Assembly (NCBI GenBank): GCA_021823685.1
Contig: JAKANL010000003.1
Span: 18,189 to 82,188 of the forward strand
DNA: 64,000 nucleotides
Direction: 5' to 3'
Source of the DNA: a bacterium
GTDB lineage: Bacteria; Babelota; Babeliae; Babelales; UBA12409
Shown here piece after piece: positions 4,525-59,169 of the stretch (the first letter of the stretch is position 1; the number at the start of each line of letters is the position of its first letter). The notes beneath the pieces were generated by a model that was given only the letters and a program-made list of their open reading frames with translations, searched no databases and was not told the origin of the DNA. A program made the position numbers and the translations under genes.

Positions 4525-4557
4525 ATGAATTCTCCAAAAAATTAAATAATGACCAAC

Positions 4558-5073: not shown

Positions 5074-5088
5074 ACTCGTTTCCCTGCC

Positions 5089-5790: not shown

Positions 5791-5809
5791 TGTGCATATC
5801 CTTACCAGT

Positions 5810-6235: not shown

Positions 6236-6250
6236 TTGTTTAACCTAACA

Positions 6251-6769: not shown

Positions 6770-6808
6770 CGTAACAGCCCCCCGAATAAACTCACCACGT
6801 TATCGCAA

Positions 6809-10233: not shown

Positions 10234-10240
10234 GATCCCC

Positions 10241-10834: not shown

Positions 10835-10893
10835 TTATAGTGGTACGTGCATTACAATAAGTATACTACATCTTATCCGCGCAAGGGGAATAC

Positions 10894-11748: not shown

Positions 11749-11894
11749 GGGCTTTTCTGTATAATCACAAAAACTTAAACAAGCATTTGCGTTCTAATTC
11801 AAAAACATTATCCTGTAAGCTAATGTAAAATTACCGTCCGCCGTTTTGAAAATTGCGCATCTGAAGGGCGCAAGAAAGTTTTTGAAGGAAATGC

Positions 11895-12521
11895 GTGAAA
11901 TATTTAGTTTTACTTTGTAGCTTATTTTTTAGTTGCAGTATTCATCCCGAAGGCTTTATTGCCGGCACCCCGGTTGCCACCGAGGGTGGATATGCTTCAA
12001 TCGAAGCACTCCAAGAAGGTGATGAAGTTCTTTCCTACGACCTAAATTGTAAATCTTGCATCAACCCGGTAATCTTTTCAATCAAAAGAAATACACCCTT
12101 GCTCGTAAAAATAACTCTTAATGACAACGAAGTTATTTTTGCTGCGCCCGACCAACCATTCATGTTATGGACGCCTCCAATCATGCCATGGACACCCTCA
12201 ACCCGTTGGGCTGTTGCCGCATCTTTGAAAGAAGGCGACCAACTTAAGGGAACGGGAATTCCAATCGTCAAAAACATTGAACTTATTGAATCTGAAGCAA
12301 AAATATATGCTATTCATGTAGCAAGTACCGGAAATTTTTGTGTATCAAGACACCATATCGTTGCACACACTTCTCGCCCAAATTTTGGAGCGGCGCTAGC
12401 AGCGGAAAGAGGACGTGCCACTATGGAAAATATTGCAACAATAACGGTCCTTGGCGCCACTGCGTTTGGCGGCGCATGGCTCGTCAAGCGAATGCTTACA
12501 AAAAAACATTCCGACGATTAA
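11895..12521 (+). CDS. Hint (Hedgehog/intein-like) domain protein with C-terminal TM segment
   Basis: GTG-start ORF. Signal-like MKYLVLLCSLFFSCS, then GFIAGTPVATEGGYASIEALQEGDEVLSYD ... IYAIHVASTGNFCVSRHHIVAHTS (Hint N- and C-terminal blocks; the first-residue Cys is replaced). Hydrophobic tail ITVLGATAFGGAWLV. Confidence 0.6.
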   Translation: MKYLVLLCSLFFSCSIHPEGFIAGTPVATEGGYASIEALQEGDEVLSYDLNCKSCINPVIFSIKRNTPLLVKITLNDNEVIFAAPDQPFMLWTPPIMPWTPSTRWAVAASLKEGDQLKGTGIPIVKNIELIESEAKIYAIHVASTGNFCVSRHHIVAHTSRPNFGAALAAERGRATMENIATITVLGATAFGGAWLVKRMLTKKHSDD

Positions 12522-21921: not shown

Positions 21922-22089
21922 ATGAAGAAATATGTGCCATGGATTGTTGTTGTCGGCCTTTTGATTGCCGGCCTTACGGCTTGGTACGTCTACAGTGCGG
22001 GTCATCCAACAATACAAACACCTACGTGCCCTACAGGGTCATCATGTCCTGAGGTTATAAAAGAGGCTAGGGATATGTCCGGAGTATAG
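21922..22089 (+). CDS. mini membrane protein, tandem paralog 1 (55 aa)
   Basis: ATG after AAAGGAG gives MKKYVPWIVVVGLLIAGLTAWYVYSAGHPTIQTPTCPTGSSCPEVIKEARDMSGV. Below the ORF-track size cut-off; translated manually. Confidence 0.5.
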   Translation: MKKYVPWIVVVGLLIAGLTAWYVYSAGHPTIQTPTCPTGSSCPEVIKEARDMSGV

Positions 22090-22131
22090 CCATCTGAAGA
22101 GTCATAGAAAAAATGTTATTAGGAAAATCGT

Positions 22132-22320
22132 ATGAAGAGATATTTACCATGGCTTGTCGCCATCGGCCTCATAATCGCCGGCGCTACGGTTTGGTACGTG
22201 TACAGCGATGCCACGAGCAGTGAAAGCACGCCAACAAAAACAAAACAATGCTCGGGATGCCCCAAAACTGAAACCGAAGATGAAGTTATAAAAGTGACTG
22301 AGGCTATATCCCCAATGTAG
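22132..22320 (+). CDS. mini membrane protein, tandem paralog 2 (62 aa)
   Basis: MKRYLPWLVAIGLIIAGATVWYVYSD...CSGCP...EVIKVTEA. The same leader AGAAAAAATGTTATTAGGAA.ATCGT precedes paralogs 2 and 3. Confidence 0.55.
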   Translation: MKRYLPWLVAIGLIIAGATVWYVYSDATSSESTPTKTKQCSGCPKTETEDEVIKVTEAISPM

Positions 22321-22357
22321 CCGAAGGGTCACAGAAAAAATGTTATTAGGAAGATCG

Positions 22358-22474
22358 TTGAAGAGATATTTACCATGGTTCATCGCGATTGGGCTTATCA
22401 TCGCCGGCGCCACGGTTTGGTTTACGGTCAACAACATAAAAAAATCCGATCATCCAACCGTGCAGACCGGATAA
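22358..22474 (+). CDS. mini membrane protein, tandem paralog 3 (38 aa, TTG start; possibly decaying)
   Basis: LKRYLPWFIAIGLIIAGATVWFTVNNIKKSDHPTVQTG. The start context CGTTGAAG versus CGTATGAAG in paralog 2 suggests a 1-nt loss that destroyed the ATG. Confidence 0.35.
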   Translation: MKRYLPWFIAIGLIIAGATVWFTVNNIKKSDHPTVQTG

Positions 22475-22511
22475 AAAGGTAGCATAAGCTAAAATGTAAA
22501 AACCCCTTTTC

Positions 22512-22598
22512 GGCTGGCTCAAGTTGGTCGAATCTGGCGCGCAAGAAATCACGATCGAAAGCCAGGATGACGAGCACTACACGATAACGGGAAAATGA
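22512..22598 (+). pseudogene. 3' remnant of an EndoU-immunity-family gene
   Basis: GGCTGGCTCAAGTTGGTCGAATCTGGCGCGCAAGAAATCACGATCGAAAGCCAGGATGACGAGCACTACACGATAACGGGAAAATGA is near-identical to the last ~85 nt of 26420-26785 (…WLKLVESGAQEITIESQDDEHYTITGK*). There is no upstream ORF. Confidence 0.75.
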
Positions 22599-22615: not shown

Positions 22616-23761
22616 TTAATTCGGCCTGGTCCCCTCGCCCAGGATAGTAAGATATCGCGCATACACAAATCGCCGCCCACGTTTTTTACCGGTAATTTCT
22701 TTCAAGATCCCGATTTTTTCAAATTGATTGATCAGATTTGAAGCCGCTTGATGAGAAAGCTTAAATTCACGCTGTACATCGCTAACACGTATTAACGGCG
22801 TATAAAAAAGCTTATCTAATAACATGATTGCAAGCGGTGATGATATCCTTCTTTTTCCAAGCAGCGCCTGATGTGTTTCGCGTAACTGTAGTATGCGTTT
22901 AATGTTTTCAGTAGCATCTTGGCATGTTTGGATAACGCCAACCAAAAAAAACTCTACCCACTGCTCATAATCGCCTTTTTCGCGTACAAGCGTAAGCCGA
23001 TCATAGTATTCTTGACGATTTTTTTTCAAATAATAACTCAAATACAAAAGAGGCTTTTTAAGAATGCCACGCCAATAAAGATAAAACGTGATAAGTAAGC
23101 GTCCCAACCGTCCGTTGCCGTCCAAAAAGGGGTGGATGGTTTCAAACTGATAGTGAATCAACGCGCAGTTGATCAGTTCCGGCATCACCGATTTTTTATG
23201 CATGTATACTTCAAGATCGCCCATGGCTTTTAACGCCTCAGCTGGCGTTGGCGGAACGTAACGAGCCGTTTTCATGGTACAGCCAGGAGCTCCGATCCAA
23301 TTTTGTATTTTTTTAAATTCGCCGGGTGTCTTTTCTGCGCCGCGTACACCCTTAAGCAAAATCGCATGCAACTCTTTGATAAGCTTCAGGCTCATAGGTA
23401 ATGAATCGAGTCGATCGATACCATAGTGAAGCGCTTTAATATAATTTACAACTTCGACAACATCATTGACGTTTTCAAGCTTGGCACCACTTTCGAATTC
23501 AAAGACGTCTTCAAGCGAGGCTTGCGTACCTTCGATCTGGGCGCTCAATAATGCTTCTTTTTTTACGTACATGGTAATAAAAAGATCGGTGTTGGGCAGG
23601 GCATAAGCCATACCGTCCAAACGTGCAAGATGGAGAGTCGCATCCCACAGAAGTTTTTGCATGTTCTCGTTAATATTAATCGCTGGATGCGGCGGCAAGG
23701 ATGTTGGTACAAAAGCCTTGAACCCAGCCGGTTGATTTACATAAATACCACTTCGATTCAT
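22616..23761 (-). CDS. Fic-family protein (AMPylase-type) with N-terminal inhibitory-helix motif and C-terminal wHTH
   Basis: 381 aa. Fic motif HPFLDGNGRLGRLL (HxFx[D/E]GNGRxxR). N-terminal SAQIEG fits (S/T)xxxE(G/N). The C-terminus looks like a winged helix. Confidence 0.9.
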   Translation of the reverse strand: MNRSGIYVNQPAGFKAFVPTSLPPHPAININENMQKLLWDATLHLARLDGMAYALPNTDLFITMYVKKEALLSAQIEGTQASLEDVFEFESGAKLENVNDVVEVVNYIKALHYGIDRLDSLPMSLKLIKELHAILLKGVRGAEKTPGEFKKIQNWIGAPGCTMKTARYVPPTPAEALKAMGDLEVYMHKKSVMPELINCALIHYQFETIHPFLDGNGRLGRLLITFYLYWRGILKKPLLYLSYYLKKNRQEYYDRLTLVREKGDYEQWVEFFLVGVIQTCQDATENIKRILQLRETHQALLGKRRISSPLAIMLLDKLFYTPLIRVSDVQREFKLSHQAASNLINQFEKIGILKEITGKKRGRRFVYARYLTILGEGTRPN

Positions 23762-26789: not shown

Positions 26790-27025
26790 CGCGTGGGGGC
26801 ACCCTTCGATGAAGCGCATATCGCGCGGAATCTCGTCGCAACCTAGGACCGCACCAACGATCTACCTGCGTAGCCCGAGCGTAGCTTTAGCGTAGACGGG
26901 CGTAGGTGAACCCAGCCGTCGCCCATGTGAGCTATGGCGCCAGCCAGGCGTAGCTTAGCATTTCTTCGAAGAAATACCTGCGTAAGCGAAGACTGGCGCG
27001 CAGGCAGGATGAGCGGAGGAACGTG
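26790..27025. repeat. GC-rich palindromic intergenic repeat cluster, copy R2
   Basis: Starts right after the immunity stop. GCACCCTTCGATGAAGCGCATATCGCGCGGAATCTCGTCG parallels 58967-59015. GAACCCAGCCGTCGCCCATGTGAGCTATGGCG is the rc match of 15371-15406. Ends with GGATGAGCGGAGGA. Confidence 0.65.
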
Positions 27026-28855: not shown

Positions 28856-29761
28856 TTAAGCCGCATGCTCTTTTGCCTGCGCAATTCTTCGCTCAAGCGC
28901 GGGCAGCAGCTCTTTTACATGAACTGCCGATGAAAGCCTCAGCATACGCTGGGTAATCGACAATCGATTATGCTGATCTTGCGCGCTCAGACGCTCAAAA
29001 TCAGGAAAATAGGTCTGCCAAAGCATGGTCAATGGCGGCATCGTATTCGAATGATCTTTGGCAAGATTAAAGTATTCTGAACACAGCCTAAGAAATGCTT
29101 GCTGCTCAGGCACGGGCCAGCAACTAATCGTATCATAGAGCACGCGCAACTGTGCCCGACGGTAATATTCATTGGCAACGCTCGCGCTCCCCAAACAAAC
29201 CATGTAAAGCCACAAATAGCCCGTATCTGGCAATTGAAAGCCAAGAGCGCGGTAATAGTTAAGCGCTACGTCGACGGGAATCTCAATGGCACAAGCAAGC
29301 ACAACCTTCCACAATGGCCAACGATCACCAGGCCCGAAGGCGGTCGCCGTTCCGGTGGCAATGGAGGCAAGCTGTGGAAACTCGGTGTTACCGCCCCACC
29401 ACACCTCAGTATTGATACCAAAAGTAGCCGTAGCCAGTAACGCCGTCTCCAACGCATTACGCGCTGGCTCACTCAGCCGCCACCATGCGCGGCTAACGCC
29501 TCTTCCGCACGATTGGCAGCCATGCCACAACCCAAGACACCAGCGAACTGGAGCCGCGTGCTGCTGCAGCACAACGGGGCGCTCTTCTTCCATTTGTTCG
29601 ATCGATTGCGCATCAGCAAGTAAATGGCTCGTTAATGCCACTTGACGATCACTCGACATACCAGCGAGCTGATTTATGAGGCCAACACACAAAAACGCGT
29701 ATAATAATTTTTTGCTCAACATGATAAACCTTTCTTCAACGACCGTTTTAACGTCTCGCAT
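28856..29761 (-). CDS. hypothetical secreted membrane protein (family member 2)
   Basis: 301-aa ORF; probable start at 29722 (MLSKKLLYAFLCVGLINQLAG). Central block ...SRAWWRLSEPARNALETALLATATFG...IEIPVDVALNYY... aligns with 31719-32753 (...DSWRGLSQGTRNTLVVSILLATTLA...IEVPVDVTTNWF...). Confidence 0.6.
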   Translation of the reverse strand: MRDVKTVVEERFIMLSKKLLYAFLCVGLINQLAGMSSDRQVALTSHLLADAQSIEQMEEERPVVLQQHAAPVRWCLGLWHGCQSCGRGVSRAWWRLSEPARNALETALLATATFGINTEVWWGGNTEFPQLASIATGTATAFGPGDRWPLWKVVLACAIEIPVDVALNYYRALGFQLPDTGYLWLYMVCLGSASVANEYYRRAQLRVLYDTISCWPVPEQQAFLRLCSEYFNLAKDHSNTMPPLTMLWQTYFPDFERLSAQDQHNRLSITQRMLRLSSAVHVKELLPALERRIAQAKEHAA

Positions 29762-31331
29762 GAACCGATAAATACCCAGGTTCTGGAGAATTTTTCGCTG
29801 TTCCCGATGAGCTCCCTGCCGAGCTCGTAGCGCCTTCAGCAGAAGGCGTAATCACGATTTGTGGCGCATCGGCACTGGTTAATCCACATGACTCTTTTTT
29901 AAGTACAATGTCGGACAAGTCTTGGTTCGCTGCTGCTAAATCAAGGCGTTGATCCACCATGAGCTTAATGCCAGCCTGCACAAGTTCGGCATATCGCACT
30001 CGCTCAACGTCACTCCAATTTTTAAAGTCACCAACAAAAACCAGGCAAATCGCCGACGTCATCGTAAAATCGATTTGACTAAGCGCTGGCACACGCGTCC
30101 CCTTAACAATCTCCAACAGATCTTGCGTGATAGGAGCTTGCTGAGCAAGCGCCTCAAATCCCAACGCACCACGAAACTTTGCGTAATGTGCAAAATCGTC
30201 AGTTGGATCGGAAAACTGTTGAATACGATTCAATAATTCGACGACAATTTTTAAATGATACCTTTGTCCCGTTGCATCTTGGCTTCCAAACGGATCCCAT
30301 ATACGCAAACAAGTATCATACAAAGCGCTGAGCGATTCTTTCCCATCGGTAGCAATAAACTTTTTCATCGATTCAGGAGTAGGGTCGCTTGGTAGCGCAT
30401 CAATAACGGTTTTGAGTTGTTCAAATGTTGTACCACTGTTGTATAGCTGGTCCAAACACCACACAAAAAGCTCGACAAAGTTTACCTGCATTTCCTGCGG
30501 GAAGCGCTGTATTTGAGGATCATTGGAGCAAAAGGCAACAACATCCTGCCAAAGCTCTTCCTGGGTCAATTGGCTATTTTGATGAACGCGTAAATAGGCG
30601 GCAAGCATATCAGCAAAGAGGTCCTTTTCAAAACCAGCATTGTAATAGGCATTGAAGGGAATGCGATAGCCGCGGCGAACACGCAATTCATTGAACATGA
30701 TCGCGACAGCCGTCGAAAGTGCATATAACGAGACTAGACCGGTTTTTCTGTATTCATTTTTAAGAGCATCAATCTGAGAACACATATATACGTCTCCGGC
30801 AATTACCCCGCTGCAAATAAGGAGCTTGAGCCAGAAATTATATCGATCAGTAATATTAGCCGCTGCTTTTCCCATCAAAATCGCGGCACTCATTGAGATA
30901 CCGCTGCGATTGACGGCATGCGCTAAAACGTTAGCACCCACTTGAGCGGTTGTTATCCCCAGCGTTAAAAGAACATCTTTTGCCCATCGCGGCAATTTTT
31001 GCACATATACCGAACAGCACCCGGGCTCTTCTTCGCGTACCCCGCCAGCCTGCCCAGCAACTGGGCTCATTGACGAACTGGCAGCGGCCGGCGCAGATGG
31101 CCCAGCGGGCGAACCAGAATCAGAAGACATCTCGCCCATTTCAACAGCGCAAGGCGCGGCTAAAAGCGATTGTTTGAGTTCTTTCTGACGTGCAATAACT
31201 AATTTTTCTTTGCCATCATCGCGCTCCATACCGATCAAAGGCATAAAGGCCAGACACAACATGGCGTATAAGACATGACGAGAATTCATAGTACCTCCAT
31301 TAAGTACTTCTTTAGCTACCATAATCCCCAT
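29748..31331 (-). CDS. hypothetical secreted membrane protein (family member 3, long C-terminal extension)
   Basis: 527-aa ORF. The N-terminus MGIMVAKEVLNGGTMNSRHVLYAMLCLAFMPLIGMER is near-identical to that of 31719-32753. Hydrophobic middle. No family recognised. Confidence 0.65.
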   Translation of the reverse strand: MGIMVAKEVLNGGTMNSRHVLYAMLCLAFMPLIGMERDDGKEKLVIARQKELKQSLLAAPCAVEMGEMSSDSGSPAGPSAPAAASSSMSPVAGQAGGVREEEPGCCSVYVQKLPRWAKDVLLTLGITTAQVGANVLAHAVNRSGISMSAAILMGKAAANITDRYNFWLKLLICSGVIAGDVYMCSQIDALKNEYRKTGLVSLYALSTAVAIMFNELRVRRGYRIPFNAYYNAGFEKDLFADMLAAYLRVHQNSQLTQEELWQDVVAFCSNDPQIQRFPQEMQVNFVELFVWCLDQLYNSGTTFEQLKTVIDALPSDPTPESMKKFIATDGKESLSALYDTCLRIWDPFGSQDATGQRYHLKIVVELLNRIQQFSDPTDDFAHYAKFRGALGFEALAQQAPITQDLLEIVKGTRVPALSQIDFTMTSAICLVFVGDFKNWSDVERVRYAELVQAGIKLMVDQRLDLAAANQDLSDIVLKKESCGLTSADAPQIVITPSAEGATSSAGSSSGTAKNSPEPGYLSVHARR

Positions 31332-31718: not shown

Positions 31719-32753
31719 TTAAACCGCTTGCGCAGATTGCGCTTTAACTAATTTTGCTTTCAATACTTCTTGAAGCTTTGGTATCGCACCTAGATCCCTC
31801 CACGCAATGACCTTTTCTACTTGAAGACTCGCGCGATCAAGATCACGGACTTCCCAGCCAAAAGCGCGCGCATCTTCTTGATAGAGTGAACGAATAGCGG
31901 CCACTCGTTGCGTAAGGGTTGCGGGTGTACGATCATCACGCTCAATCTTTTGGAGCGCATCAATTACTTTAGGCGCCACGCTTAAGGCCAAGGCCAATTC
32001 GCGCAATGTCCATCTGCGTGCTTCGCTCACCGCTTCGCGTTTATTTTTTTCAACCATTATGCTTGAAAGGCCAGTAAGTCCCATCGCCACAGCAAGAAAA
32101 CCAGTGTGCGGACAATGCATCTGCCCAGCGCGCGCTAAAAACCAATTAGTTGTCACGTCAACAGGCACTTCAATGCCAACCGCTAAGGCTTTGCCCCAAA
32201 AGGCATATTTTGCCAGTGGGCCATAACCCATAGCAACGCCCGTTGCGGCATGAATAAGCGCGGGCACCAACTCATTGCCCCCAAATGCATCCTCTGCCGA
32301 CGCTGCTAATGTGGTAGCTAAAAGTATTGAGACAACGAGGGTGTTTCGCGTTCCCTGCGATAAGCCGCGCCAGGAATCGGTGATATGGTTCCCGCACGAA
32401 TGCATACTTTCTCTGACACGCTGCCAGCAGCTTGGGCTTGGCCGAGCGGCATCACGATGCACCACGACAATCGGCGTTTTGGTCGGAGAAGATTCAACAA
32501 CGCTCGTATTAGGCATAGCTAAAGCGGCAGATGGTGCAGCAGCACCAGAACCCATGTCGCTCATTTCAACAGCAGGCGCTGCTAAAAGAGGCCTTCTAAA
32601 TTCGCTCGCCCAACCGGACTTTTTGCCCTTGCTATCGAAACGCTCCATGCCGATTAATGGCACAAAAGCCAGACAGAGCATGGCGTATAAGACGTGACGA
32701 GAATTCATCGAGCCTCCATTTATGAATACTTCTTTAGTTCCAATAATTCCCAT
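31719..32753 (-). CDS. hypothetical secreted membrane protein (family member 4)
   Basis: 344-aa ORF with N-terminus MGIIGTKEVFINGGSMNSRHVLYAMLCLAFVPLIGMER. Paralog of 28856-29761 and 29748-31331. The upstream ~130 nt are also duplicated. Confidence 0.65.
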   Translation of the reverse strand: MGIIGTKEVFINGGSMNSRHVLYAMLCLAFVPLIGMERFDSKGKKSGWASEFRRPLLAAPAVEMSDMGSGAAAPSAALAMPNTSVVESSPTKTPIVVVHRDAARPSPSCWQRVRESMHSCGNHITDSWRGLSQGTRNTLVVSILLATTLAASAEDAFGGNELVPALIHAATGVAMGYGPLAKYAFWGKALAVGIEVPVDVTTNWFLARAGQMHCPHTGFLAVAMGLTGLSSIMVEKNKREAVSEARRWTLRELALALSVAPKVIDALQKIERDDRTPATLTQRVAAIRSLYQEDARAFGWEVRDLDRASLQVEKVIAWRDLGAIPKLQEVLKAKLVKAQSAQAV

Positions 32754-33277: not shown

Positions 33278-34435
33278 GTGGTGAAGTGGGCAGTAGTATT
33301 TGCGGCCTTAAGTACCGCCAAGTGTTTGTTGGGAGATGGATTTTGCGCAGGGACGCATGTTAAAACGCCTGGTGGTTATGCCGCGATTGAACAGATTAAA
33401 CAAAAAGATCTCATTATTGGTTTTGATGCACGGCTCGGCGTATGCGCACCTTGCATCGTAAATGCGATTAACAAAAAACGTGTGAATCAAGTTATTAGGC
33501 TGACCACTGGGGGGCAAGAGCTCTATGTTGGATGCCAGCAGCGATTTTTGTGCCTGAACCAAAGAAGAAATGATCTGAAGCGCTGGTTGATTTGGACAAA
33601 GGTGCGTGATCTTAAACGGGGTATGCGGCTATTGAGCGCGAATAAAATCAGCGTTTGTGTTGATACCGTTCAGCGTATGGCCAGGCCGATAGATGTATAT
33701 GAGTTAAGTGTAGCTGGGGCGCATACGTATATTGTAACTGAACATGATCTTGTTGCGCACAATGTCGCTCCCATTGTAATTCCCTTTGTTTATACCGTCG
33801 GAGAGGGCGTAACAATTGCCTGGGGAGCTGCGGCGGCGTTGCTTGGATATGCGACGATCCATCACGCTGTAGGAAACCGCTGTGATACGTCAGGATTATG
33901 CGGACCACACACGGTTGATGAAATACAAAATCATCAGGACAATTGGAGTCGCTTAGTCCGCGAGCGAACGATCAGCGCTGATCGTTCTAAACTGCACTTG
34001 TGCTATGGTGGCAGTAATGGAGGGCCAGATCGCAATAATAAGTCGCCATGTAATCCCAATAAGGGAAAAAATAAAAATCCTCAGCAGCCATCGGATCCGA
34101 ATAATGCGCGTAATAAAAATCAAAGGCAAGGGCCGAAAAATGTAAACTCAAGACAAGTTGCTGCCAAAGAACGTAAATTTAATACGATGGAAAGGGCGGA
34201 GGTTTTTCGGAAAGGTAAATTTAAGCAAGACTATAAAACGTGCAAAAACGGCCGTTATGTAAAAAAAACCGGTGTCGAAGGATTTGGGAAAAGAGCGCAA
34301 TATTTAGAGTGGGATAATTTTCATAAAGATATGGAAATGTATGATAAATTTGGCCGGCATCAAGGATGTATAGAGCCGATTACTGAAAAAATATATAAAC
34401 CAGCCGTACCTGGCCGAACGATTAATGTAAGGTAA
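33278..34435 (+). CDS. Hint-domain polymorphic toxin with colicin-E3-like 16S rRNase C-terminal domain
   Basis: 385 aa. Signal-like N-terminus, then Hint blocks GFCAGTHVKTPGGYAAIEQIKQKDLIIGFD ... YELSVAGAHTYIVTEHDLVAHN, then a hydrophobic segment and an Asn/Lys/Pro-rich linker. The C-terminus ...KRAQYLEWDNFHKDMEMYDKFGRHQGCIEPITEKIYKPAVPGRTINV aligns with the colicin E3 end ...KIYEWDSQHGELEGYRASDGQHLGSFDPKTGNQLKGPDPKRNIKKYL recalled from memory. The D, H and E of the catalytic WD..H...E string are retained. Confidence 0.8.
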   Translation: MVKWAVVFAALSTAKCLLGDGFCAGTHVKTPGGYAAIEQIKQKDLIIGFDARLGVCAPCIVNAINKKRVNQVIRLTTGGQELYVGCQQRFLCLNQRRNDLKRWLIWTKVRDLKRGMRLLSANKISVCVDTVQRMARPIDVYELSVAGAHTYIVTEHDLVAHNVAPIVIPFVYTVGEGVTIAWGAAAALLGYATIHHAVGNRCDTSGLCGPHTVDEIQNHQDNWSRLVRERTISADRSKLHLCYGGSNGGPDRNNKSPCNPNKGKNKNPQQPSDPNNARNKNQRQGPKNVNSRQVAAKERKFNTMERAEVFRKGKFKQDYKTCKNGRYVKKTGVEGFGKRAQYLEWDNFHKDMEMYDKFGRHQGCIEPITEKIYKPAVPGRTINVR

Positions 34436-34438
34436 TGT

Positions 34439-35647
34439 ATGAAGAAAATCGACATTCTGGATAAATTGTACAAAAAAATGATCACGCAGAGAGAGGCTGA
34501 GGCCATTTATGTAGACGTTTTTGATAAATTCAATCGAGGGATATTAAAAACTGATCCGGTAAAACTTTTATGTTTATCCCATAAAGAGAAAATTGCGATT
34601 CGGCTGCATGATATATCGCTTAAAGTCTTGGCAAAATGGCGGTATGAGGGTTGGCCAAAAACCTGCGCCATTTGCGATAAACCTGTGGCGATAGGAAAAG
34701 TTGATTGGTGCGTCTTTGAGCGAAAGAAAATTGGCGGTAAAATGCGCAGCGAGGTGGTTATGCATGGGGATTGTTACTCAGCAATGCCCACCCCGAAAAA
34801 GGCATCGCAAGATCTCTACGAGATTTTTGATCGAGCGTGTGCGAAGGCCTCTGATGAACGATTGATGCGCCTTTTAGCGCGATTTAAAAAAATGGATTAC
34901 CTTGCAGCTCCCATCATTTTTGATCTCATTTGTGCAAAAAGAATCAGAGTTCTTAAATTATTGCATGAGCAACACGTACCATTTTCTTATTTGGCTTCTT
35001 CTGGTGGTAACGCACTTCACGCCGCCTGTGGCATTTCAGGCAGCCTTGAGGCGGTAAAATTTTTAATCAAAAATAATATTCTTACGGATATTAATGCCGA
35101 ATGCGATGATGGAGAAACGCCATTTCTTTTGGCTGTGATGTACAATCACATGGATATTGTTGAGTATTTTTTTGAACATTTTACTCCGAATGTAACCATT
35201 TCCACACTTCATGGTGATACACCGCTTTCACTTGCCAAAAAAAATGGCAACACACTATTATACGCTCTTATCACAGCGCATTTGCCAGAAACAAGTACGC
35301 CGATTTTAAAATTAAGTAGAAATGAGCTCAAACACGCTTTCGAAGGTGTATTGGCCATATTAATCGACGACGACATAAAGGAAATTGAATTTCCGGACAG
35401 AGCAATCTATTTTTGTCGGATCTTGAACAAAAAAGATGAAAATGACGGCTCGCCCGAATCAAACATTGTTGGATCATTAAGCGAAGATATGGCATCGCTT
35501 AAAGAAAGTATACATGGTAAAAAAGGATGGTTTGAATTAGACATCGAACGCTTTGGAGCGATACTTCTTGCACTTGGTGCACGAGTAAAAAGTACATATC
35601 CCAAACGCAGAGCACGGGTGTCTGGGCGTAAGATTGACGTGAGATAA
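34439..35647 (+). CDS. ankyrin-repeat protein; candidate immunity partner of the E3-like toxin
   Basis: 402-aa ORF starting 3 nt after the toxin stop. Middle ANK repeats (GGNALHAACGISGSLEAVKFLIKNN...DGETPFLLAVMYNHMDIVEYFF...HGDTPLSLAKKNGNTLL). The N-terminal ~130 aa are unassigned and carry C..C/H..C pairs. Confidence 0.75.
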   Translation: MKKIDILDKLYKKMITQREAEAIYVDVFDKFNRGILKTDPVKLLCLSHKEKIAIRLHDISLKVLAKWRYEGWPKTCAICDKPVAIGKVDWCVFERKKIGGKMRSEVVMHGDCYSAMPTPKKASQDLYEIFDRACAKASDERLMRLLARFKKMDYLAAPIIFDLICAKRIRVLKLLHEQHVPFSYLASSGGNALHAACGISGSLEAVKFLIKNNILTDINAECDDGETPFLLAVMYNHMDIVEYFFEHFTPNVTISTLHGDTPLSLAKKNGNTLLYALITAHLPETSTPILKLSRNELKHAFEGVLAILIDDDIKEIEFPDRAIYFCRILNKKDENDGSPESNIVGSLSEDMASLKESIHGKKGWFELDIERFGAILLALGARVKSTYPKRRARVSGRKIDVR

Positions 35648-36138: not shown

Positions 36139-37236
36139 ATGAATTTTCGTATTTTCTTTTTAGCGGCCGGCTTGTTTTTTGCTCCGGCGATGGGCATGTT
36201 TAAGTGTTGCATGTCCAGAAAACGTGCGGCCGATTATCACTCATTTGATTCGGCGACGCCATTAAGGGCCGAGCGTGCTGAACAGCCTCAGGCGAATATT
36301 ATTGTATCTACTCATGTCAAGCCTGATTTTACAAAAATGTTAGCCATTGTGAGAGCATTGTTCCCAAGAGCAGATACCCCTACAGCACTTAATTATGTAA
36401 AAATTCTAGCCTCGGGGCGGACTCAGCCTGTGCCAGTGTTTACTAAAGCGTTGATACCCTGCGAGCTCATATTTGGCAAATCGATTGCTGTTCGTTCTTC
36501 CGTTACTCACAACTATGGCAGCCCGGCGGTAAGCGCTGCGGCGTTGACCGCTGAGCAATGGAGAAAAATTGATATTGCTCTTGTGGAAGAGGGGAGAGAT
36601 GCCGCGTTGGCAATCATTATGAGTACCGGTGTCGATGTTGATGAAGCTGATCGCATACTTGTACAAATTGGCAAACAGCCACTCCGCGCACGATCAACCC
36701 CCCCACAAGCACATGCTGAAAGAAATTCTGACATAGAAAAATTAAATCAGCTTTATTCGGAAGGTTCGGCCGCTAAACCAGAAACGCGGGCATCCACTGC
36801 AAGGCGTGCGCCGTTGACTGCGGAGCAGTTGGCAAAAATTGAGGCTGCCCTCGCGAAAAATAACGCGGATGATGCGCTAGCCATTATTATGAGTGCTGGT
36901 ATCGGATTTGAGGAAGCTGACCGCATGCTTGCGCAAATAGGCAAAGAGCCAACTCGCACACCATCAATGCCGCTACGAGCACACGCTGGGGGAAGTTCAG
37001 GCATAGAAAGTGATCAGCTTTCTCGAGAAAGTTCGGCTGGCGGGTCCGAAACGCGGGCATCCACTGCAAGGCGTGCGCCACTGACTGCCGAGCAGCTAAC
37101 AAAAATTGAAGCGGCTCTCACTGAAAGTAGCGTAGACGCTGCATTGGCCGGCATTATGAACGCTGGCATCGAATTTGAAGAAGCTAACCGTATGCTTGTG
37201 CAAATGGGCAAAAAGTCGGTTCAGCCATTGTCATAG
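36139..37236 (+). CDS. hypothetical secreted protein with three ~75-aa tandem repeats
   Basis: 365 aa with signal-like MNFRIFFLAAGLFFAPAMG. Repeats LTAEQ(W/L).KI(D/E)-AL...DAALAIIMS.G...EEADR(I/M)L.QIGK occur three times (about 36535-36700, 36805-36950, 37085-37215). Confidence 0.6.
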   Translation: MNFRIFFLAAGLFFAPAMGMFKCCMSRKRAADYHSFDSATPLRAERAEQPQANIIVSTHVKPDFTKMLAIVRALFPRADTPTALNYVKILASGRTQPVPVFTKALIPCELIFGKSIAVRSSVTHNYGSPAVSAAALTAEQWRKIDIALVEEGRDAALAIIMSTGVDVDEADRILVQIGKQPLRARSTPPQAHAERNSDIEKLNQLYSEGSAAKPETRASTARRAPLTAEQLAKIEAALAKNNADDALAIIMSAGIGFEEADRMLAQIGKEPTRTPSMPLRAHAGGSSGIESDQLSRESSAGGSETRASTARRAPLTAEQLTKIEAALTESSVDAALAGIMNAGIEFEEANRMLVQMGKKSVQPLS

Positions 37237-37356
37237 CAAACGAGTTAAAGCGTTTGATAAAAATGATTTCGCATACGCTGGGAAGCTTCAGCAAATTTTC
37301 CGGCGGTACGGGCTTGTGGCGTGTTTAAACCAACCGATTATTTTTTGTCCATCGGT

Positions 37357-37776
37357 TCAAGAAGCACTATTGGCGCTAAGAATACGCGTTATTTCTGCGT
37401 CATTATGTATCGCATAAACGCGGTAATCATCACCATCTTGCGTAATAAGTATTTTTGGCGGTTGTTGCGCGTAAACGGTTTTCCATTGCTCAAGAAGAGA
37501 AATGAATGACTGAACTGGAATTGAATATTCTTCATTCTCAGTTTCAGACCATTCATATGAGAGTTTAACTACCTTTCCATCCATTTCGTAGCACATGTCA
37601 TAAACCTGAACAAAACTTTCTTGTGGATTGCGTGCCCACGCAATAAAATCGTCGGCATCATATCTGACAATACCCCTCAAAAAATGCGCAGCAGCACAAA
37701 GCGATAACGAGGTTGCCTCGTTATCTTCAATGGTATAGCTTATGATTTCTGATTTTTTCAAAATAATGTAACTCAT
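37357..37776 (-). CDS. candidate immunity protein of the orphan EndoU module
   Basis: 139-aa ORF whose ATG abuts the stop of the orphan toxin module. The C-terminus ...SFISLLEQWKTVYAQQPPKILITQDGDDYRVYA distantly parallels ...LEKLIIDWLKLVESGAKEITIESQDDEHYTI of immunity copies 1-3. Confidence 0.55.
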   Translation of the reverse strand: MSYIILKKSEIISYTIEDNEATSLSLCAAAHFLRGIVRYDADDFIAWARNPQESFVQVYDMCYEMDGKVVKLSYEWSETENEEYSIPVQSFISLLEQWKTVYAQQPPKILITQDGDDYRVYAIHNDAEITRILSANSAS

Positions 37777-38229
37777 TTATACGACTGCCTTAAAATTTTC
37801 TTCCCAGGGATAAACCGTAATAACTTTACCGTTTCTAATGCATGTTACAATAACCATCCCATCATTTGTCTTCCCCATAAAAATTCCCGTCTTGCTCTCA
37901 TAGGAAATCTCATTATTCCATGATTCAACAATTTTTTTGGCGAGTCCATCCATGGTCCACTGCGACGGAAAAAGCGTAGCCTTTGGTTTTATAACATCGC
38001 CTATTTTTAATTTACATAAAACAGCTCCACTTGAGTGTACTTTTGGTTCGATCAGTTGAACTTTACCAGCTTTTTGCAATGCGCCATTCTGATCCCAGTG
38101 AAATCCAAAAATTTTAGTTTTGCGTTTGGCCGGATTATAGCGTACATCGGCAGCGAGGATGTGCCACAGATCAATGGATGCTATCTTAACGGGTAACTGA
38201 GGCTGCTGTGCAACAGTTATAACATGTGC
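37777..38229 (-). pseudogene. orphan EndoU-like toxin C-terminal module without a canonical start
   Basis: The frame is open from the TGA at 38232-38230 down to 37777 and reads AHVITVAQQPQLPVKIASIDLWHILAADVRYNPAKRKTKIFGFHWDQNGALQKAGKV...KATLFPSQWTMDGLAKKIVESW...GMVIVTCIRNGKVITVYPW. That is a complete divergent EndoU-type pattern. The only start-like codon is a TTG at 38079, inside the domain. Confidence 0.6.
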
Positions 38230-38241
38230 TCAAGTTAACCG

Positions 38242-38610
38242 CTATTTTCCCGTTATCGCGTAGTGCTCGTCATCCTGACTCTCGATGGTAATCTCTTTTG
38301 CGCCCGATGCGACGAGCTTGAGCCAGCCGATCAAAATCTTTTCAAGCTCACTTTCTTTGATGGTGAATGAGGGCCCATCTTCTTCGAATTCGTAACTTAG
38401 CTTTATATAACCATCATGGCGTTCAAGAGTAATAAGATTTCCTCCAGCAGAATCCCAATCTTTATTTTTTTGTAAGAACTCGAGGCTGTATTCGAGAAAA
38501 TCGGGGCAATCACCAACTAAAAATAGCATTAAAAATCCAAAGCCCGCTTCAGGCTCTTCTTTGGGTTTCCAATAGCCCGACTTACTTTCAAATAGAACCA
38601 TTTTTTTCAT
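38242..38610 (-). CDS. candidate cognate immunity protein (copy 2)
   Basis: 122-aa ORF with ATGA overlap with toxin copy 2. Its C-terminal half is near-identical to copies 1 and 3; its N-terminal half is diverged. Confidence 0.7.
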   Translation of the reverse strand: MKKMVLFESKSGYWKPKEEPEAGFGFLMLFLVGDCPDFLEYSLEFLQKNKDWDSAGGNLITLERHDGYIKLSYEFEEDGPSFTIKESELEKILIGWLKLVASGAKEITIESQDDEHYAITGK

Positions 38611-41042
38611 TTTTTTACTTTCTTCAATAAATCCGGATACGCCGTAATGATATTCTTACTCTTATCGATAATAATTTTTATTGCTTTTTGTTCAGTTTCG
38701 AGCCACCCAACCAGTACCTGTCTACCCGCTTCTGCTGGATAAATTTCCTTTATATTTCCATATGCCTCAAGAACTTTCTCAAAGACTTTTTCTGGCGGCC
38801 AGTCTGCTGGGAAAAATGATTTGGGAGTCGGTTTTTGCATTCCATATTTTGCCTCTTTAACAAAATAAAAACCACCACCATAATCAAGCTTGTTAGGCAA
38901 ACTAATCACATTATTTCGCTCAAGCACACATCGGTAATCATGGTGAAATCCCATCCATTTTTCAACAAGGCCACTTTTTTGATCAATTTTTCTGACGTCA
39001 AGCGCAATCAAATGGAGCGGTTGTGTAAAACATGCACCACCAATTTCCGGAATCGGTTTGCCATATCGCGCAATAATCGCTGCACGTTGTTGCTCCGGCA
39101 GGGCAAACACTTTGAGCAATTGCTGGGTACCCGGCGCGGGTAACGGCCCGGGAAAAGCGGTGGTAACGGTTGGTTTCTCAGGTACGGCTGGTTGCAAACC
39201 GGAAGAAACTGGCTTCGTCGGCTGAGCAAGCGGATTCTGCGGCTGTGACCCTGAAGAAGCTCCTGCTGGCTGGGTGGGTATTTTTTGAGCCGCCTGTTGC
39301 TCTTGCTTGAGCAGATTGCTGGCAAGCGATTTTTTCGGCGCATGGGCAAGCTCTTCGGCAAAGCCCTCGCCGATACTGGCTTGTGCATGAGCAAGGGCGA
39401 ATTCGCGCTGTGAGCCGGCAAGCGGCAAGCGGATTTTGGTGCCCGAGGCCCTGTCCGCCATCTTGTCCGCCATAGTCTTGACGACGGCGGAAGTCTTGAC
39501 GGCGGCGGAGGCTTTTGCCAGCGCGGGAAGTTTGTTAAGTGCTTGTGCGCTTTTGTTCAGAACGTTTGCCGATAGCGTTAAACATTTGGAAGCCAATACG
39601 CCTTCGGCAACAAACTGCGTACCGCCGGATACGCAATCACTGAACGTCATGAGAGGGTGTTGGGACTTAGCTTTGGCACACAATTCGTTGGCTGCTGCCT
39701 TGAGCATGGCATAAAGTTCAGCGCGCGTTTGGGCACTGCGTTGCTCATCATCGCCGAGCAAAATATCTGCCGTATATGCCACGCGTGCAATTGTTGCACC
39801 GAGAGTTTTCAGCGAGGCGAAAAGATTTTCGGCTGTTTGAAGGGGATGAACAACCATCTGCGCTGTTGAGCAGCCGGCACAGAGAGCTCCGTCAAGCGCG
39901 CTTGTGCCCAGTATGCCCAGAACTTCGTAATCGACCTGTGCTGTCGCTTTGGCCAGCGTAAAAAATTCTTGCACACTCTGCCACGCCGCATGCATAACGT
40001 CGGCCATAGCGTAACCGCCAGCAAGATTATTGCCGCGGTTAAACGCATCGGCACATTCGGCAAATTGCAGCGCAATATGCGCAATATGTTCTTGAACGAG
40101 CGAGCGTCGGATTTCGTGACTCTTTTGCGCCCATTGTTCAAAGACGGACCTGTATTCTTCGTGCAGTTCTACCTGCGCAGCGTTACCACGCAGGGGAAGA
40201 AGTGCAGCCGCTGGCATACCAGCTTTTGTAAGCTCAGTCCGTTCCTGCGCTGAAAGTTTTATGTTGCGCTCGTGCAATTGCCCCGGGTGATCAAGGGTTG
40301 CTTTGAGCGCACGAACGCGTTTATCGATTATTTGGTAACTGGTTGGATTAAGCGAACGGTTATCGAGCTGTGAACAGTAGTTTGTGTAGAGTTGTTTGGC
40401 CTGCCCTGCGGAGCCTTGGCAAAGCGGGGTTTGAGCAATACTGCTGTTTTGTTGGAGCATGTTTTTTGCCGCGATAGTTGTCTTAAAATGATTTTGAGCC
40501 TTTGCGCTCACTGTTGTGGTCTGAGCCGAATGCTCGAACTTCTCGTTCGGGGTCGACAGGCGAGCGGCCACCTTGGGAGCGCAGGGTTTCCAAAGGGGTT
40601 TACCCCCTTTGGCGTGGGGATTGGAAAGGGCCGAACGAGGGGTCCTTTCCGGCCTCCCGCGTAGGGGCAAAACTGAATTTGATATGGTAACGTTCTGCGT
40701 AGAATGGTACTCACAATGTCTCTGCGCGTTCTCGTACTCTTGGCAAGCCTGTATCCATCGTTGTTCGCGCATCTGCTCAATAATTTCAAAGTTTTCTGGC
40801 ATACTCTGATGGTCGGTTCGATATGATACGTCTATCTGTACAGGATTGTGGTACGTTAATGCGTCACTTGATCGAGGCAAACACATTCGTATAGTAGCCG
40901 ATTCTGGCCATTGAACGTGCAAAGCTTGCTCTTTGTGTTGTCTTAACAAAGCCGTCTGGGCAGCCAGCTTAATATCACGTGCTGGCAAATTACTTTGACA
41001 AGCAATACTTGTCAGAAAAATAACTACTCTCAATCGTTTCAC
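38607..41042 (-). CDS. Sec-signal polymorphic-toxin-like protein with EndoU-like RNase C-terminal domain (copy 2)
   Basis: 811 aa. GTG start after AGGGG. Signal-like MKRLRVVIFLTSIACQS. Central region near-identical to copy 1. C-terminus ...HLIALDVRKIDQKSGLVEKWMGFHHDY...KSFFPADWPPEKVFEKVLEAY...IKIIIDKSKNIITAYP. Confidence 0.75.
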   Translation of the reverse strand: MKRLRVVIFLTSIACQSNLPARDIKLAAQTALLRQHKEQALHVQWPESATIRMCLPRSSDALTYHNPVQIDVSYRTDHQSMPENFEIIEQMREQRWIQACQEYENAQRHCEYHSTQNVTISNSVLPLRGRPERTPRSALSNPHAKGGKPLWKPCAPKVAARLSTPNEKFEHSAQTTTVSAKAQNHFKTTIAAKNMLQQNSSIAQTPLCQGSAGQAKQLYTNYCSQLDNRSLNPTSYQIIDKRVRALKATLDHPGQLHERNIKLSAQERTELTKAGMPAAALLPLRGNAAQVELHEEYRSVFEQWAQKSHEIRRSLVQEHIAHIALQFAECADAFNRGNNLAGGYAMADVMHAAWQSVQEFFTLAKATAQVDYEVLGILGTSALDGALCAGCSTAQMVVHPLQTAENLFASLKTLGATIARVAYTADILLGDDEQRSAQTRAELYAMLKAAANELCAKAKSQHPLMTFSDCVSGGTQFVAEGVLASKCLTLSANVLNKSAQALNKLPALAKASAAVKTSAVVKTMADKMADRASGTKIRLPLAGSQREFALAHAQASIGEGFAEELAHAPKKSLASNLLKQEQQAAQKIPTQPAGASSGSQPQNPLAQPTKPVSSGLQPAVPEKPTVTTAFPGPLPAPGTQQLLKVFALPEQQRAAIIARYGKPIPEIGGACFTQPLHLIALDVRKIDQKSGLVEKWMGFHHDYRCVLERNNVISLPNKLDYGGGFYFVKEAKYGMQKPTPKSFFPADWPPEKVFEKVLEAYGNIKEIYPAEAGRQVLVGWLETEQKAIKIIIDKSKNIITAYPDLLKKVKK

Positions 41043-57050: not shown

Positions 57051-57149
57051 TACTCTTCATGCGCTCCCTCTAAAAAACCCTACCCTGAATAACACGTAGC
57101 ATAATAAACGTTATTCAAGCAATGCTTTTGCCCGCTATAAGCCCCACTC

Positions 57150-57179
57150 TAGAAATATTTTTTGGCAATGAGCTAAGCT
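57150..57179 (+). promoter_or_regulatory. candidate promoter (TAGAAA-18-TAAGCT) of toxin copy 3
   Basis: TAAGCT at 57174-57179 lies within a ~27-nt block shared with 33215-33241. The -35 is weaker than in the other two copies. Confidence 0.3.
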
Positions 57180-57208
57180 GTCACTTTGTCTTTTTTAGGA
57201 GGGTTGGC

Positions 57209-58554
57209 GTGAGACAGTTGTGGATCGTTTTTTTACTTGCCGCGCAAAGCATAATAGCAGTCGATTGGATGGTGCCGCCGCGCATTTTACGCCAGCAAGA
57301 AACAGCAATCGCAGTGGCGTTTTTGCCACAAAAAACGCCACTGCAAGTTCAGTCACAAAACGAGTTTGTCGATGGCGGTTCTGCGCTTATGGATTGGGTC
57401 ATCCGGCAGCGTGATTACATGCCTGCATATCACGAAAGCATTCCAACCCCAGAAAATACTGTGTCGCCAACAAACCAAAATAATAATCAGCCTAAAAAAG
57501 TCGTGCTCGCGCATGCTTCCGCCGTCGCTAAAGCTAAGGCGGACAGGTCTTCGGGCAACTGGCGATCGACCAAAAAAACAACTGGTCAAGCCAACGCGGC
57601 TGCTGCGGCCGTCTTGCGGAAGCAACAGATAAAACAACTCTACACAAACTTCTGTTCACAACTCGATAATAAAACAATTGATACCAAGAATTACCAAATA
57701 ATCGATAAACGCGTTCGCGCACTCAAAGCAACTCTCGACCATCCTGGTCAGATTCAGGAACGAAGCATAAAATTTTCAGCGCAAGAACAAGCCGAGCTTT
57801 TAAAATCTGGCGTGCCAGCAGCGGCGCTTACTTCGCTACGCGGCAACGCTGCGCAAGCCGAACTACACGAAGAATACGGGTCAGTTTTTGAACAGTGGGC
57901 ACAAAAGAACAGCAGACTGCCCAACAAATATCCACCCAGCAAGCAACACCGATTTCTTCTCCCGGCCTACAACCAGCTGTTTCTGAAAAACCAATCGTTA
58001 CCGCCGCTTTTTCTGGGCCATTACCAGCGCCTGGCACCCAACAGTTGCTCAAAGTGTTTGCGCTGCCCGAACAGCAACGGAAGGCAATTATTGCCCGATA
58101 CGGCAAACCAATTTCTGAAACAGATGGCCTTTGTTTTAAGAATCCACTCCATTTGATAACAATTGATGTGAGAAAAATTGATCAAAAAACTGGTATCGTC
58201 AAAGAGTGGATGGGATTCCATCATGATCATTTAAATACACTTGAGCGGAACAATGTTGTCAAAATAACCAGCAGGAATGATTTTGGTGATAGTTTTTATG
58301 AAGCAATCGTAGCGTATGGAACGCAAGTGCCAAAGAAAAAATCTTTTTTCCCAGCCGAATGGCCGCCGGAAAAAGTCTTTGAAAAAGTTCTTGAGGCCTA
58401 TGAAAACATTATCGAAACAACTTCAACAAACTCAGGTGGACAAAAAATAATTGGTTGGCTTGAAAAGGAGCAAAAAACAATCGAGATTATAATGGACAAA
58501 AACAGGAATATTATTACAGCATACCCAAAACTGCTATACGAGGGGTCCAAATGA
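57209..58554 (+). pseudogene. EndoU-like toxin copy 3, internally deleted (~0.8 kb) and frameshifted
   Basis: GTG 57209 after AGGAGG gives VRQLWIVFLLAAQSIIA. Homology to copy 1 runs to ...FEQWAQK (about 57900), then jumps to ...EQQTAQQISTQQATP... in another frame (track ORFs 57122-58156 and 57895-58554). The C-terminal EndoU-like domain is intact (GFHHDH...KKSFFPAEWPPEKVFEKVLEAY...IITAYP). Confidence 0.7.
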
Positions 58555-58919
58555 AAAAATTATTTCTATATAAAAGTGCATGCGGCTATTGGAAACCAAA
58601 AGAGAGCCTCGATTCAAACATGGAGCTTCTCTGGTCTTTTTTCGCTGACGATTCAATCAAATTTCTCGAATATAGTCTGGAATTTTTACAAAAAAACAAA
58701 GATTGGGAATCCGCGGGGGGCGATGCTATCGATCTTAGACGCCATGATGGCCAAATAACTTTAAGTTACGAATTCGAAGAAGATGGACCATCGTTTACGA
58801 TCAAAGAAAGTGAGCTGGAAAAGATTCTTGTCGGATGGCTTAAATTGGTCAAATCGGGCGCAAAGGAAATCATGATCGAAAGCCAAGATGATGAGCATTA
58901 TACGATAACGGGAAAATAG
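58551..58919 (+). CDS. candidate cognate immunity protein (copy 3)
   Basis: 122-aa intact ORF with ATGA overlap with the toxin remnant. Closest to copy 2 (…FLEYSLEFLQKNKDW.SAGG…). Confidence 0.7.
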   Translation: MKKLFLYKSACGYWKPKESLDSNMELLWSFFADDSIKFLEYSLEFLQKNKDWESAGGDAIDLRRHDGQITLSYEFEEDGPSFTIKESELEKILVGWLKLVKSGAKEIMIESQDDEHYTITGK

Positions 58920-59169
58920 CGGACACGTGGTAACATCCTTCGATAAACTCAGGATGAGCGGGGTGTGATGTGTGAAGTTACCCTTCGATGGAGCGCGTCG
59001 ATGCGCACAGAATCTCGCCGTGCCCGTTCATAGCTGTAAGCGTAGACAGGCATAGCCCGCGCGTAGCCACAAGCGAAGACGGGCGACGACGGATAAGCGA
59101 GCACGTGGAAACATCCTTCGACATACTCAGGATGATTGGGTGTGAGTTCGGAATGAGCGGGGTGTGAAA
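58920..59169. repeat. GC-rich palindromic intergenic repeat cluster, copy R5
   Basis: Direct repeats CACGTGG(T/A)AACATCCTTCGA(T/C)A(A/T)ACTCAGGATGA at 58924 and 59102. The middle section parallels R2 (ACCCTTCGATGGAGCGCG...GAATCTCGCCG; GTAAGCGTAGACAGGC...). Confidence 0.65.

Follow-up and report, generated by a model that had tools for sequence, protein, structure and literature searches.

An orphan EndoU toxin tip and its immunity gene behind a full-length toxin cassette of a Dependentiae bacterium, probably a displaced fossil kept for immunity

We analysed a stretch of 64,000 nucleotides of a bacterial genome (assembly GCA_021823685.1, contig JAKANL010000003.1, positions 18,189 to 82,188 of the forward strand; the whole stretch is called the window, and positions are counted from its first letter), focusing on an EndoU-type toxin tip without a start codon and the small gene that follows it. 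The pair forms an orphan toxin/immunity module that closes the toxin-2/immunity-2 operon at its 3' end, and it is probably a displaced fossil of which the immunity gene has been kept for protection. A preliminary description, made from the letters alone, had placed the module directly behind the second EndoU cassette of the window; all of its coordinates hold, and the minus strand is open from 38229 to 37777 as it had stated. The features concerned are the following.

37777 to 38229, minus strand: orphan EndoU-type toxin domain, 150 sense codons plus a TAA stop, truncated at its 5' end
37357 to 37776, minus strand: orphan immunity gene, 139 aa, whose ATG abuts the TAA of the toxin frame with zero gap
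38230 to 38244, minus strand: junction, comprising the TAG of immunity gene 2 (38244-38242), a 9-nt spacer and the in-frame TGA (38232-38230) that closes the orphan frame upstream
38242 to 38610, minus strand: immunity gene 2, 122 aa, the partner of toxin 2, overlapping the toxin stop (ATGA)
38607 to 41042, minus strand: full-length toxin 2, 811 aa, with an N-terminus resembling a signal peptide, a conserved central region, a linker rich in Pro, Gln and Ala, and an EndoU C-terminal toxin domain (CT)
38077 to 38079, minus strand: TTG (Leu51), the only canonical start-type codon in the orphan frame, giving a 100-aa product that lacks His23 and His44

The orphan tip is a complete EndoU-type toxin domain with the family-typical residues intact. 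The Pfam family EndoU_bacteria (PF14436) matches residues 38-141 over profile positions 17-127 of 129, at 31.4 bits and E 2.8e-7, above the curated gathering cut-off of 25.3; the tips of the three full-length copies in the window score 25.3, 28.1 and 35.1 bits, and the orphan scores at least as high as two of the three. In an alignment of 22-23 sequences, every invariant or near-invariant position is kept in the orphan, including H23, G42, H44, D46, F87, P88, W91, E102, T138 and P141, and, of the expected catalytic His-His-Lys triad, H23 and H44 fall in the invariant or near-invariant His columns, as mapped by alignment only. An AlphaFold2 model built from the same alignment has a pLDDT of 91.3 and a pTM of 0.85, and its best Foldseek matches in the PDB, all at prob 1.00 and TMq 0.52-0.55, are XendoU (2c1w), the calcium-activated EndoU 9ftw and Nsp15 of coronavirus (6vww). 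The tip is thus predicted to have the EndoU fold, while a profile search against PDB chains gave no sequence-level match. These results bear out the EndoU-type pattern that had been read from the letters.

The tip had also been called much more divergent than its neighbours, and this is correct. Depending on the alignment, its identity to the CTs of copies 1-3 is 19-26 %, compared with 25-32 % to unrelated toxins in the databases; it is slightly closer to the latter and therefore represents a distinct EndoU subtype rather than a decayed copy of a neighbour. At the position of the Lys-Thr (K-T) dyad the orphan reads K83-A84-T85, with the Lys shifted by one in the alignment mapping, and the same is seen in a relative on a metagenome contig (L004) and in some database members. 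The change of the dyad Lys to Ala is therefore probably a trait of the subfamily rather than a sign of decay. An exhaustive phmmer search of 1.84 billion representative proteins with the orphan CT returned 108 matches at E<1e-3, about 30-35 % identical. Most matches longer than about 300 aa carry the matching region at their extreme C-terminus, and in all ten long matches that were scanned PF14436 was the sole Pfam match above the gathering cut-off. A word-indexed protein search with the orphan CT gave no match; with toxin 2 it returned only toxin 2 itself and the paralogue from cassette 1.

What the tip lacks is the upstream part of a toxin gene, from start codon and signal peptide to delivery region and linker. 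Its frame is open from 38229 to 37780, ends in TAA at 37779-37777 and begins 12 nt past the stop of immunity gene 2 on the same strand, and the closing TGA upstream sits 22 codons ahead of His23. As the preliminary description had seen, there is no signal peptide, no pre-toxin region and no ATG or GTG start. No ATG, GTG or TTG occurs in the frame ahead of codon 51, hence none before His23 or His44; the only near-cognate codons before His23 are ATA4, AAG15, ATA16, ATT19 and CTG21, none of them preceded by a Shine-Dalgarno-like motif. Gene callers left the stretch uncalled in a second assembly (L005). The orphan frame happens to be the reading frame of immunity gene 2, interrupted by the TAG, three codons and the TGA, which is probably a coincidence at a chance of 1 in 3. 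A read-through fusion of immunity 2 and the orphan was rejected because two stops intervene and because frame sharing has that same chance.

No terminator-like or promoter-like site and no notable RNA structure was found between immunity 2 and the orphan, so that co-transcription of the orphan pair with toxin 2 is the simplest assumption, and toxin 2 is probably the promoter-proximal gene of an operon that also carries the pair. The DNA homology shared by cassettes 1-3 stops 3 nt past the immunity stop in cassette 2, which is where the orphan begins. GC content is 52-57 % over the toxin-2 body and drops sharply at the CT boundary (region 38600-41000); the tip itself, immunity 2 and the orphan pair all have 36-43 %. 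The drop could reflect a separate origin of the tip and immunity modules or only a difference in amino-acid composition.

The 139-aa ORF is, by sequence homology, a member of the immunity family that includes immunity 1-3 and the corresponding genes of L004 (P0002), L017, L018 and L019. Pairwise identity to immunity 1-3 is 17-23 %, and a two-sequence profile matched them with an hhalign E of only 7.7e-4. On its own, the gene that follows the nearest full-length toxin (P0008, contig L017) aligns with the combined immunity profile at prob 89 % and E 2.3e-6, and with this gene included in the profile the orphan immunity protein matches immunity 1-3 with prob 89 % and E 2.2e-6 over 101 columns. 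The resemblance to immunity 1-3 that had been proposed is therefore real homology, whereas its restriction to the C-terminus did not stand, as the match spans about 100 columns. A hidden Markov model (HMM) of the family, whose training set included the L017 and L018 immunity sequences, picks up the immunity genes that follow the full-length EndoU toxin in L019 as well; these L019 genes had no part in the training. No Pfam family covers the group. A structure model of the 139-aa protein is of moderate confidence (pLDDT 73) and matches nothing significantly in the PDB; 5hkq_I, the CdiI of Escherichia coli STEC_O31, ranks 34th with E 0.99.

One close relative of the pair was identified, on a 1074-bp metagenome contig from the Joint Genome Institute (L004) that carries a CT and then an immunity gene in the same order. 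Its CT is 41 % and its immunity protein (P0002) 53 % identical to the orphan pair, and the immunity gene overlaps the CT stop by 4 nt. The CT frame of L004 is open to the contig edge, at least 32 codons beyond the point at which the orphan frame is closed, which fits a part of a longer protein, with an internal Met (residue 24) as a possible alternative start. Synonymous sites are saturated between the two pairs, so that contrasts of the proportions of nonsynonymous and synonymous differences (pN/pS) are usable and the corresponding rate ratio (dN/dS) is not. In the C-terminal third of the orphan immunity protein (residues 86-133), pN is 0.10 against a saturated pS of 0.80, and this part has therefore been under strong constraint for most of the divergence from L004. 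A scan of a genome collection with the immunity alignment and two metagenome scans with the CT and immunity alignments recovered no relative, not even L004. The preliminary description had suggested looking for a full-length toxin that carries this CT; no close copy was found in the protein and collection searches, where the best complete proteins are about 35 % identical.

These data also bear on whether the module is a chance open frame or an assembly artefact. A run of 150 open codons has a P of about 3e-5 at the local composition, and about two stop-free runs of at least this length are expected per shuffled 64-kb window over six frames; the openness of the frame alone is weak evidence, and all the data come from metagenome assemblies. 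The HMM and fold evidence is not weak, however. The Pfam E value, the confident model of the EndoU fold and the homologous pair on L004 speak against chance, and the junction is identical in the second assembly (L005, 2 mismatches in 5301 nt), and this explanation is effectively refuted.

Orphan toxin/immunity modules are a textbook feature of contact-dependent growth inhibition (CDI), Rhs and Maf loci, and the preliminary description had recognised the layout of CDI and Rhs loci here. As in the orphan cdiA-CT/cdiI, rhs-CT/rhsI and mafB-CT/mafI modules (PMC4436062; PMC4927057), the window orphan comes straight after a full-length toxin/immunity pair and is oriented like it, comprises the toxic tip only, with no trafficking region and no initiation signal, and has a tip of another sequence type than the expressed one with its own immunity gene behind. 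Unlike those modules, it has no pre-toxin motif (VENN, (Q/E)LYN or PxxxxDPxGL) and no stretch homologous to the upstream gene, and there is no transposase or integrase among the ten neighbouring ORFs scanned with Pfam, such genes being frequent and not defining for orphan modules. The delivery protein of the window is also not CdiA, Rhs or MafB, being an uncharacterised protein of about 800 aa whose N-terminus resembles a signal peptide. A further difference is the host, a Dependentiae bacterium.

Two models have been put forward for orphans, namely a fossil, in which a displaced 3' end is kept for immunity, and a silent repository that can be fused to the expressed gene through retained homology (PMC4927057; definition in PMC4436062). 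Orphans of CDI and Rhs loci that recombine retain a stretch of homology with the full-length gene ahead of them (PMC4436062; PMC4927057). We found no such stretch in the window. A blastn comparison of the orphan with the toxin genes at word size 7 gave no DNA match, and the N-terminal 22 aa of the orphan scored no better than shuffled sequences against the pre-CT regions of toxins 1-3. A suspected pre-toxin motif, "IA..YG.P", which appeared to link L004, the orphan and toxins 1-3, was dropped since the local alignments were no better than shuffles. With no DNA or protein homology to the pre-toxin region, there is therefore no substrate for the usual homologous recombination. Beside the orphan, homology is confined to the 3' end of the immunity genes, which is conserved; an exchange at that place would relocate the module and would neither fuse nor express the tip.

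This speaks against the silent reservoir that had been suggested for the module, in which an intact tip and its immunity gene form a reserve, and recombination can join the tip to a full-length toxin gene and so change which toxin is deployed. Recombination of an orphan Rhs tip onto the full-length gene with such a switch is said to have been shown in Salmonella. The model is established for CDI and Rhs (PMC4436062; PMC4927057), and it stays alive here because the tip is intact: the CT is complete and undecayed, with the catalytic histidines and all family-invariant residues. Moreover, the subtype is unlike CTs 1-3, so deployment would be useful, and the three paralogous cassettes of the window offer targets. 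Given the missing homology at the 5' end of the orphan, we regard a reservoir as unlikely for this locus.

Two unrelated loci show the same layout. In L018 (ENA ERZ25067524; 37 % GC, with ankyrin genes nearby), a 707-aa toxin is succeeded, in this order, by an immunity gene of two domains, fragments of immunity genes, a CT without a start codon and another two-domain immunity gene. The start-less CT has 131 codons, opens 4 residues ahead of the first His, matches the full-length 3' end at 77 % DNA identity and retains about 116 nt of pre-CT homology, which is what a reservoir requires. The two L018 immunity genes (within 9186-12239) are tandem fusions of two domains, of 274 and 273 aa. In L019 (GCA_004196295.1), a 1001-aa toxin and an immunity gene precede half a CT (the C-terminal half), which opens 5-9 nt past the immunity stop and is itself followed by a second intact immunity gene. 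The second immunity gene is 88 % identical to the first, and the orphan tip is 64 % identical in amino acids to the neighbouring full-length tip. The full-length toxin of L019 (P0013, within 2877-6999) contains two EndoU-like stretches, at residues 699-811 and 854-1001.

Both loci resemble the window orphan in their toxin domain and immunity family and in the order of full-length toxin, immunity gene, start-less CT fragment and immunity gene, and in L019 the fragment likewise opens a few bases past the preceding immunity stop. They differ in that their tips are close copies of the neighbouring ones, whereas the window orphan is a distinct subtype with no shared tract. A truncated tip with an immunity gene is thus, judging from these sequences, a recurrent arrangement in this EndoU toxin family. 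The truncation points are not the same, lying 22 residues before the first His in the window, 4 residues before it in L018 and within the domain in L019, and these differences suggest illegitimate breakpoints. The L019 tip is too short for a toxin, yet its immunity gene is intact, which speaks against a reservoir.

According to the reading as a displaced fossil, either a cassette of the 1-3 type would have been joined ahead of the module, or the 3' end of an older or foreign toxin gene would have been displaced downstream, with an illegitimate breakpoint about 20 codons ahead of the first catalytic His. The toxin piece would be transcribed by read-through from cassette 2 and would not be translated into an active nuclease. 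The 139-aa protein would be translated from its own ATG and would bind and neutralise this EndoU subtype when it is delivered by relatives, and the gene has presumably been kept because of that protection. Re-deployment of the tip would be possible in principle and would need illegitimate recombination.

Several points weigh against this reading. That the 139-aa ORF is translated and that the CT is silent are both steps that we infer. The abutment of the immunity ATG with the CT stop (TAAATG) normally suggests coupling to the upstream ORF, which here is supposed to be untranslated, and the Shine-Dalgarno-like AAGG of this ATG, at -15, is weak and distant. An unselected fossil should decay, yet the CT is intact, which fits a recent event and equally a maintained reservoir. 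A relative-rate count found no excess change on the orphan CT lineage compared with L004, in a test biased by outgroups that were picked by their similarity to the orphan. L001-L003 and L005 are one population with identical sequences in the orphan region and offer no polymorphism to gauge present-day selection; the 46 mismatches of L003 all lie within an internal repeat of the gene convergent to the module. Finally, that the 139-aa protein neutralises this very tip is suggested by adjacency and by co-conservation in a single 1-kb contig.

Another reading is a relic that is wholly dead, in which neither the tip nor the 139-aa ORF would function any longer and both would have escaped decay so far because the rearrangement is recent. 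The weak Shine-Dalgarno-like sequence and the absence of an evident promoter-like site agree with it, as does other debris of the family in the window, namely a 43-codon immunity fragment (22467-22598), the split and partly deleted toxin 3, and a short stretch beyond the module.

37324 to 37351, minus strand: 28-nt stretch, 6 nt past the orphan immunity stop, 25 of 28 positions identical to 58437-58464 (plus strand) in the interior of the cassette-3 toxin domain (peptide GQKIIGW)

The match of this stretch has a blastn E of 3.6e-4, and its local alignment score was reached by none of 300 shuffles; it is possibly a scrap of an older CT. Against a dead relic, the immunity gene still has an intact ORF that starts with ATG, belongs to a conserved family and was constrained in its C-terminal third as described above, and the immunity genes behind the truncated tips of L018 and L019 are intact while the tips are damaged to differing degrees. 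We therefore consider a wholly dead module quite improbable.

The abutting TAA and ATG could also point to a stand-alone pair of the toxin-antitoxin kind, in which the EndoU domain would be translated from one of the codons ATA4, ATA16, ATT19 and CTG21, or by ribosomes that re-initiate downstream of immunity 2. It would act in the producer or be released in another way. Near-cognate codons ahead of His23 exist, and the databases hold short EndoU proteins of 120-190 aa that start with Met. However, several of these entries start inside the domain and look like truncated tips, the domain is almost always the C-terminal tip in relatives over about 300 aa, and the L004 homologue extends upstream as a longer ORF. 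Since the near-cognate codons have no Shine-Dalgarno-like motif before them and two in-frame stops separate the orphan from immunity 2, such a pair is very improbable.

As for the activity of the tip, the CdiA-CT/CdiI of E. coli STEC_O31 (PDB 5HKQ) is a characterised antibacterial EndoU toxin/immunity pair (PMC9086364). The orphan shares with it a tip of (predicted) EndoU fold, two putative catalytic histidines and a small protein encoded directly downstream, for which neutralisation is predicted in the window. By analogy with the STEC_O31 CdiA-CT, the orphan tip would be expected to cleave RNA (the tRNA anticodon loop). The two differ in that the best fold matches of the orphan are eukaryotic and viral EndoU proteins and not 5HKQ, in that the orphan has Ala in place of the K-T dyad Lys, and in that the match of the immunity model to 5hkq_I is not significant.

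The proteins that carry the full-length tips are also not of a familiar kind. Windowed identity between toxins 1 and 2 is 80-92 % in the central region and 65-70 % in the tips, with a poorly conserved N-terminus. Apart from EndoU, toxins 1 and 2 have no Pfam domain at E up to 1 save sub-threshold HypF_C and NA-iREase2 (E 0.04-0.1), and VENN, (Q/E)LYN and the Rhs motif PxxxxDPxGL are absent from both. Because the delivery features of CdiA (two-partner secretion and filamentous haemagglutinin repeats, VENN) and of Rhs (YD repeats, PxxxxDPxGL) were absent when tested, the locus is not a CDI (CdiB/CdiA) or an Rhs/type VI secretion system. The central region of toxins 1 and 2 is weakly similar to the central regions of several EndoU toxins in the databases. 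One may speculate that the EndoU proteins are a new delivery family of polymorphic toxins, with a Sec-type N-terminus and a central domain as in P0013, P0078 and P0059 and without a known trafficking domain, used by Dependentiae against co-infecting rivals or the host, and that tips and immunity genes are swapped as cassettes at a boundary just past the immunity stop by a non-homologous or site-specific route. We consider this idea rather improbable. If cassettes are indeed exchanged at such a boundary, the lack of a homology tract would not prevent the intact orphan from serving as a reserve.

The arrangement itself is already known, and it is mildly new in being newly described for this lineage and toxin family, a family without a known delivery domain whose immunity family has no Pfam entry. 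In our literature search, no paper turned up in which Dependentiae are linked to polymorphic toxins or immunity proteins; endoU is mentioned for the phylum in one paper, as a nuclease for digestion (PMC6561590). Three independent loci with tips cut at different points and with intact immunity genes give comparative support to the notion that orphans persist mainly for immunity and not as ammunition. In addition, the window holds a ready-made case for cross-protection between two diverged EndoU/immunity pairs of one family.

The host assignment follows from MurA: the protein encoded in the window shares 58-63 % identity with its counterparts in Candidatus Dependentiae/Babeliales genomes and 41-44 % with those of others; the organism is therefore a deep-branching Dependentiae bacterium. 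The presence of nusG-rplKAJL, radA and murA indicates that the window is chromosomal. Cultured Dependentiae are intracellular parasites of protists (PMC6561590). The toxin genes of the window comprise the three EndoU toxin/immunity cassettes and one PT-HINT/colicin-E3-like toxin with an ankyrin protein behind it. Among the ten neighbouring ORFs, Pfam matches were to PT-HINT/Cytotoxic, ankyrin, PRTase and Fic domains, and six of the ten had no match.

Damaged genes of EndoU cassettes occur elsewhere in the window too. The toxin gene of cassette 3 (57122-58554, plus strand) is split into the overlapping frames 57122-58156 and 57895-58554 and lacks about residues 290-524 of toxin 1; because of this frameshift and internal deletion, its EndoU tip is probably unexpressed too, and immunity 3 (58551-58919) is intact. 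The immunity fragment at 22467-22598 (plus strand) is a 43-codon 3' piece of the immunity 1-3 type that ends in TGA and has in-frame stops ahead, with 65-84 % protein identity and 89 % DNA identity over the last 54 nt. Its neighbour is a Fic gene on the minus strand (22616-23761), and it lies 1.5 kb ahead of cassette 1; from its sequence it looks like the relic of a fourth cassette. A 95-aa ORF upstream of toxin 2, considered as a relative of the Fic protein beside cassette 1, proved to be unrelated. The motif CCCTTCGATGRAGCGC occurs only twice in the window, at 26802-26817 and 58981-58996 (plus strand), shortly downstream of immunity 1 and 3 and missing behind cassette 2; it may be an element of the cassette flank.

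Further genes of the window were noted in passing. The second polymorphic toxin, unrelated to the EndoU proteins (385 aa), has a Pretoxin-HINT domain and a Cytotoxic (colicin E3-type) C-terminus, and a 402-aa ankyrin-repeat protein follows it after 3 nt in the position of an immunity gene (both within 33278-35647, plus strand). The convergent gene (36139-37236, plus strand; 365 aa) has internal direct repeats about 270 nt apart and about 73 % identical; the Logan contig L003 aligns to a different repeat register, and the copy number or sequence of the repeat may vary. Three tandem small ORFs of 55, 62 and 44 aa (21922-22474, plus strand) encode similar single-pass membrane peptides (MK.Y.PW...GL.IAG.T.W.V...). 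Two adjacent proteins of 527 and 344 aa (29748-31331 and 31719-32753, minus strand) have no Pfam match and share a nearly identical N-terminus, MGI..KEV..GG.MNSRHVLYAMLCLAF.PLIGMER; they may represent a lineage-specific secreted or membrane family.

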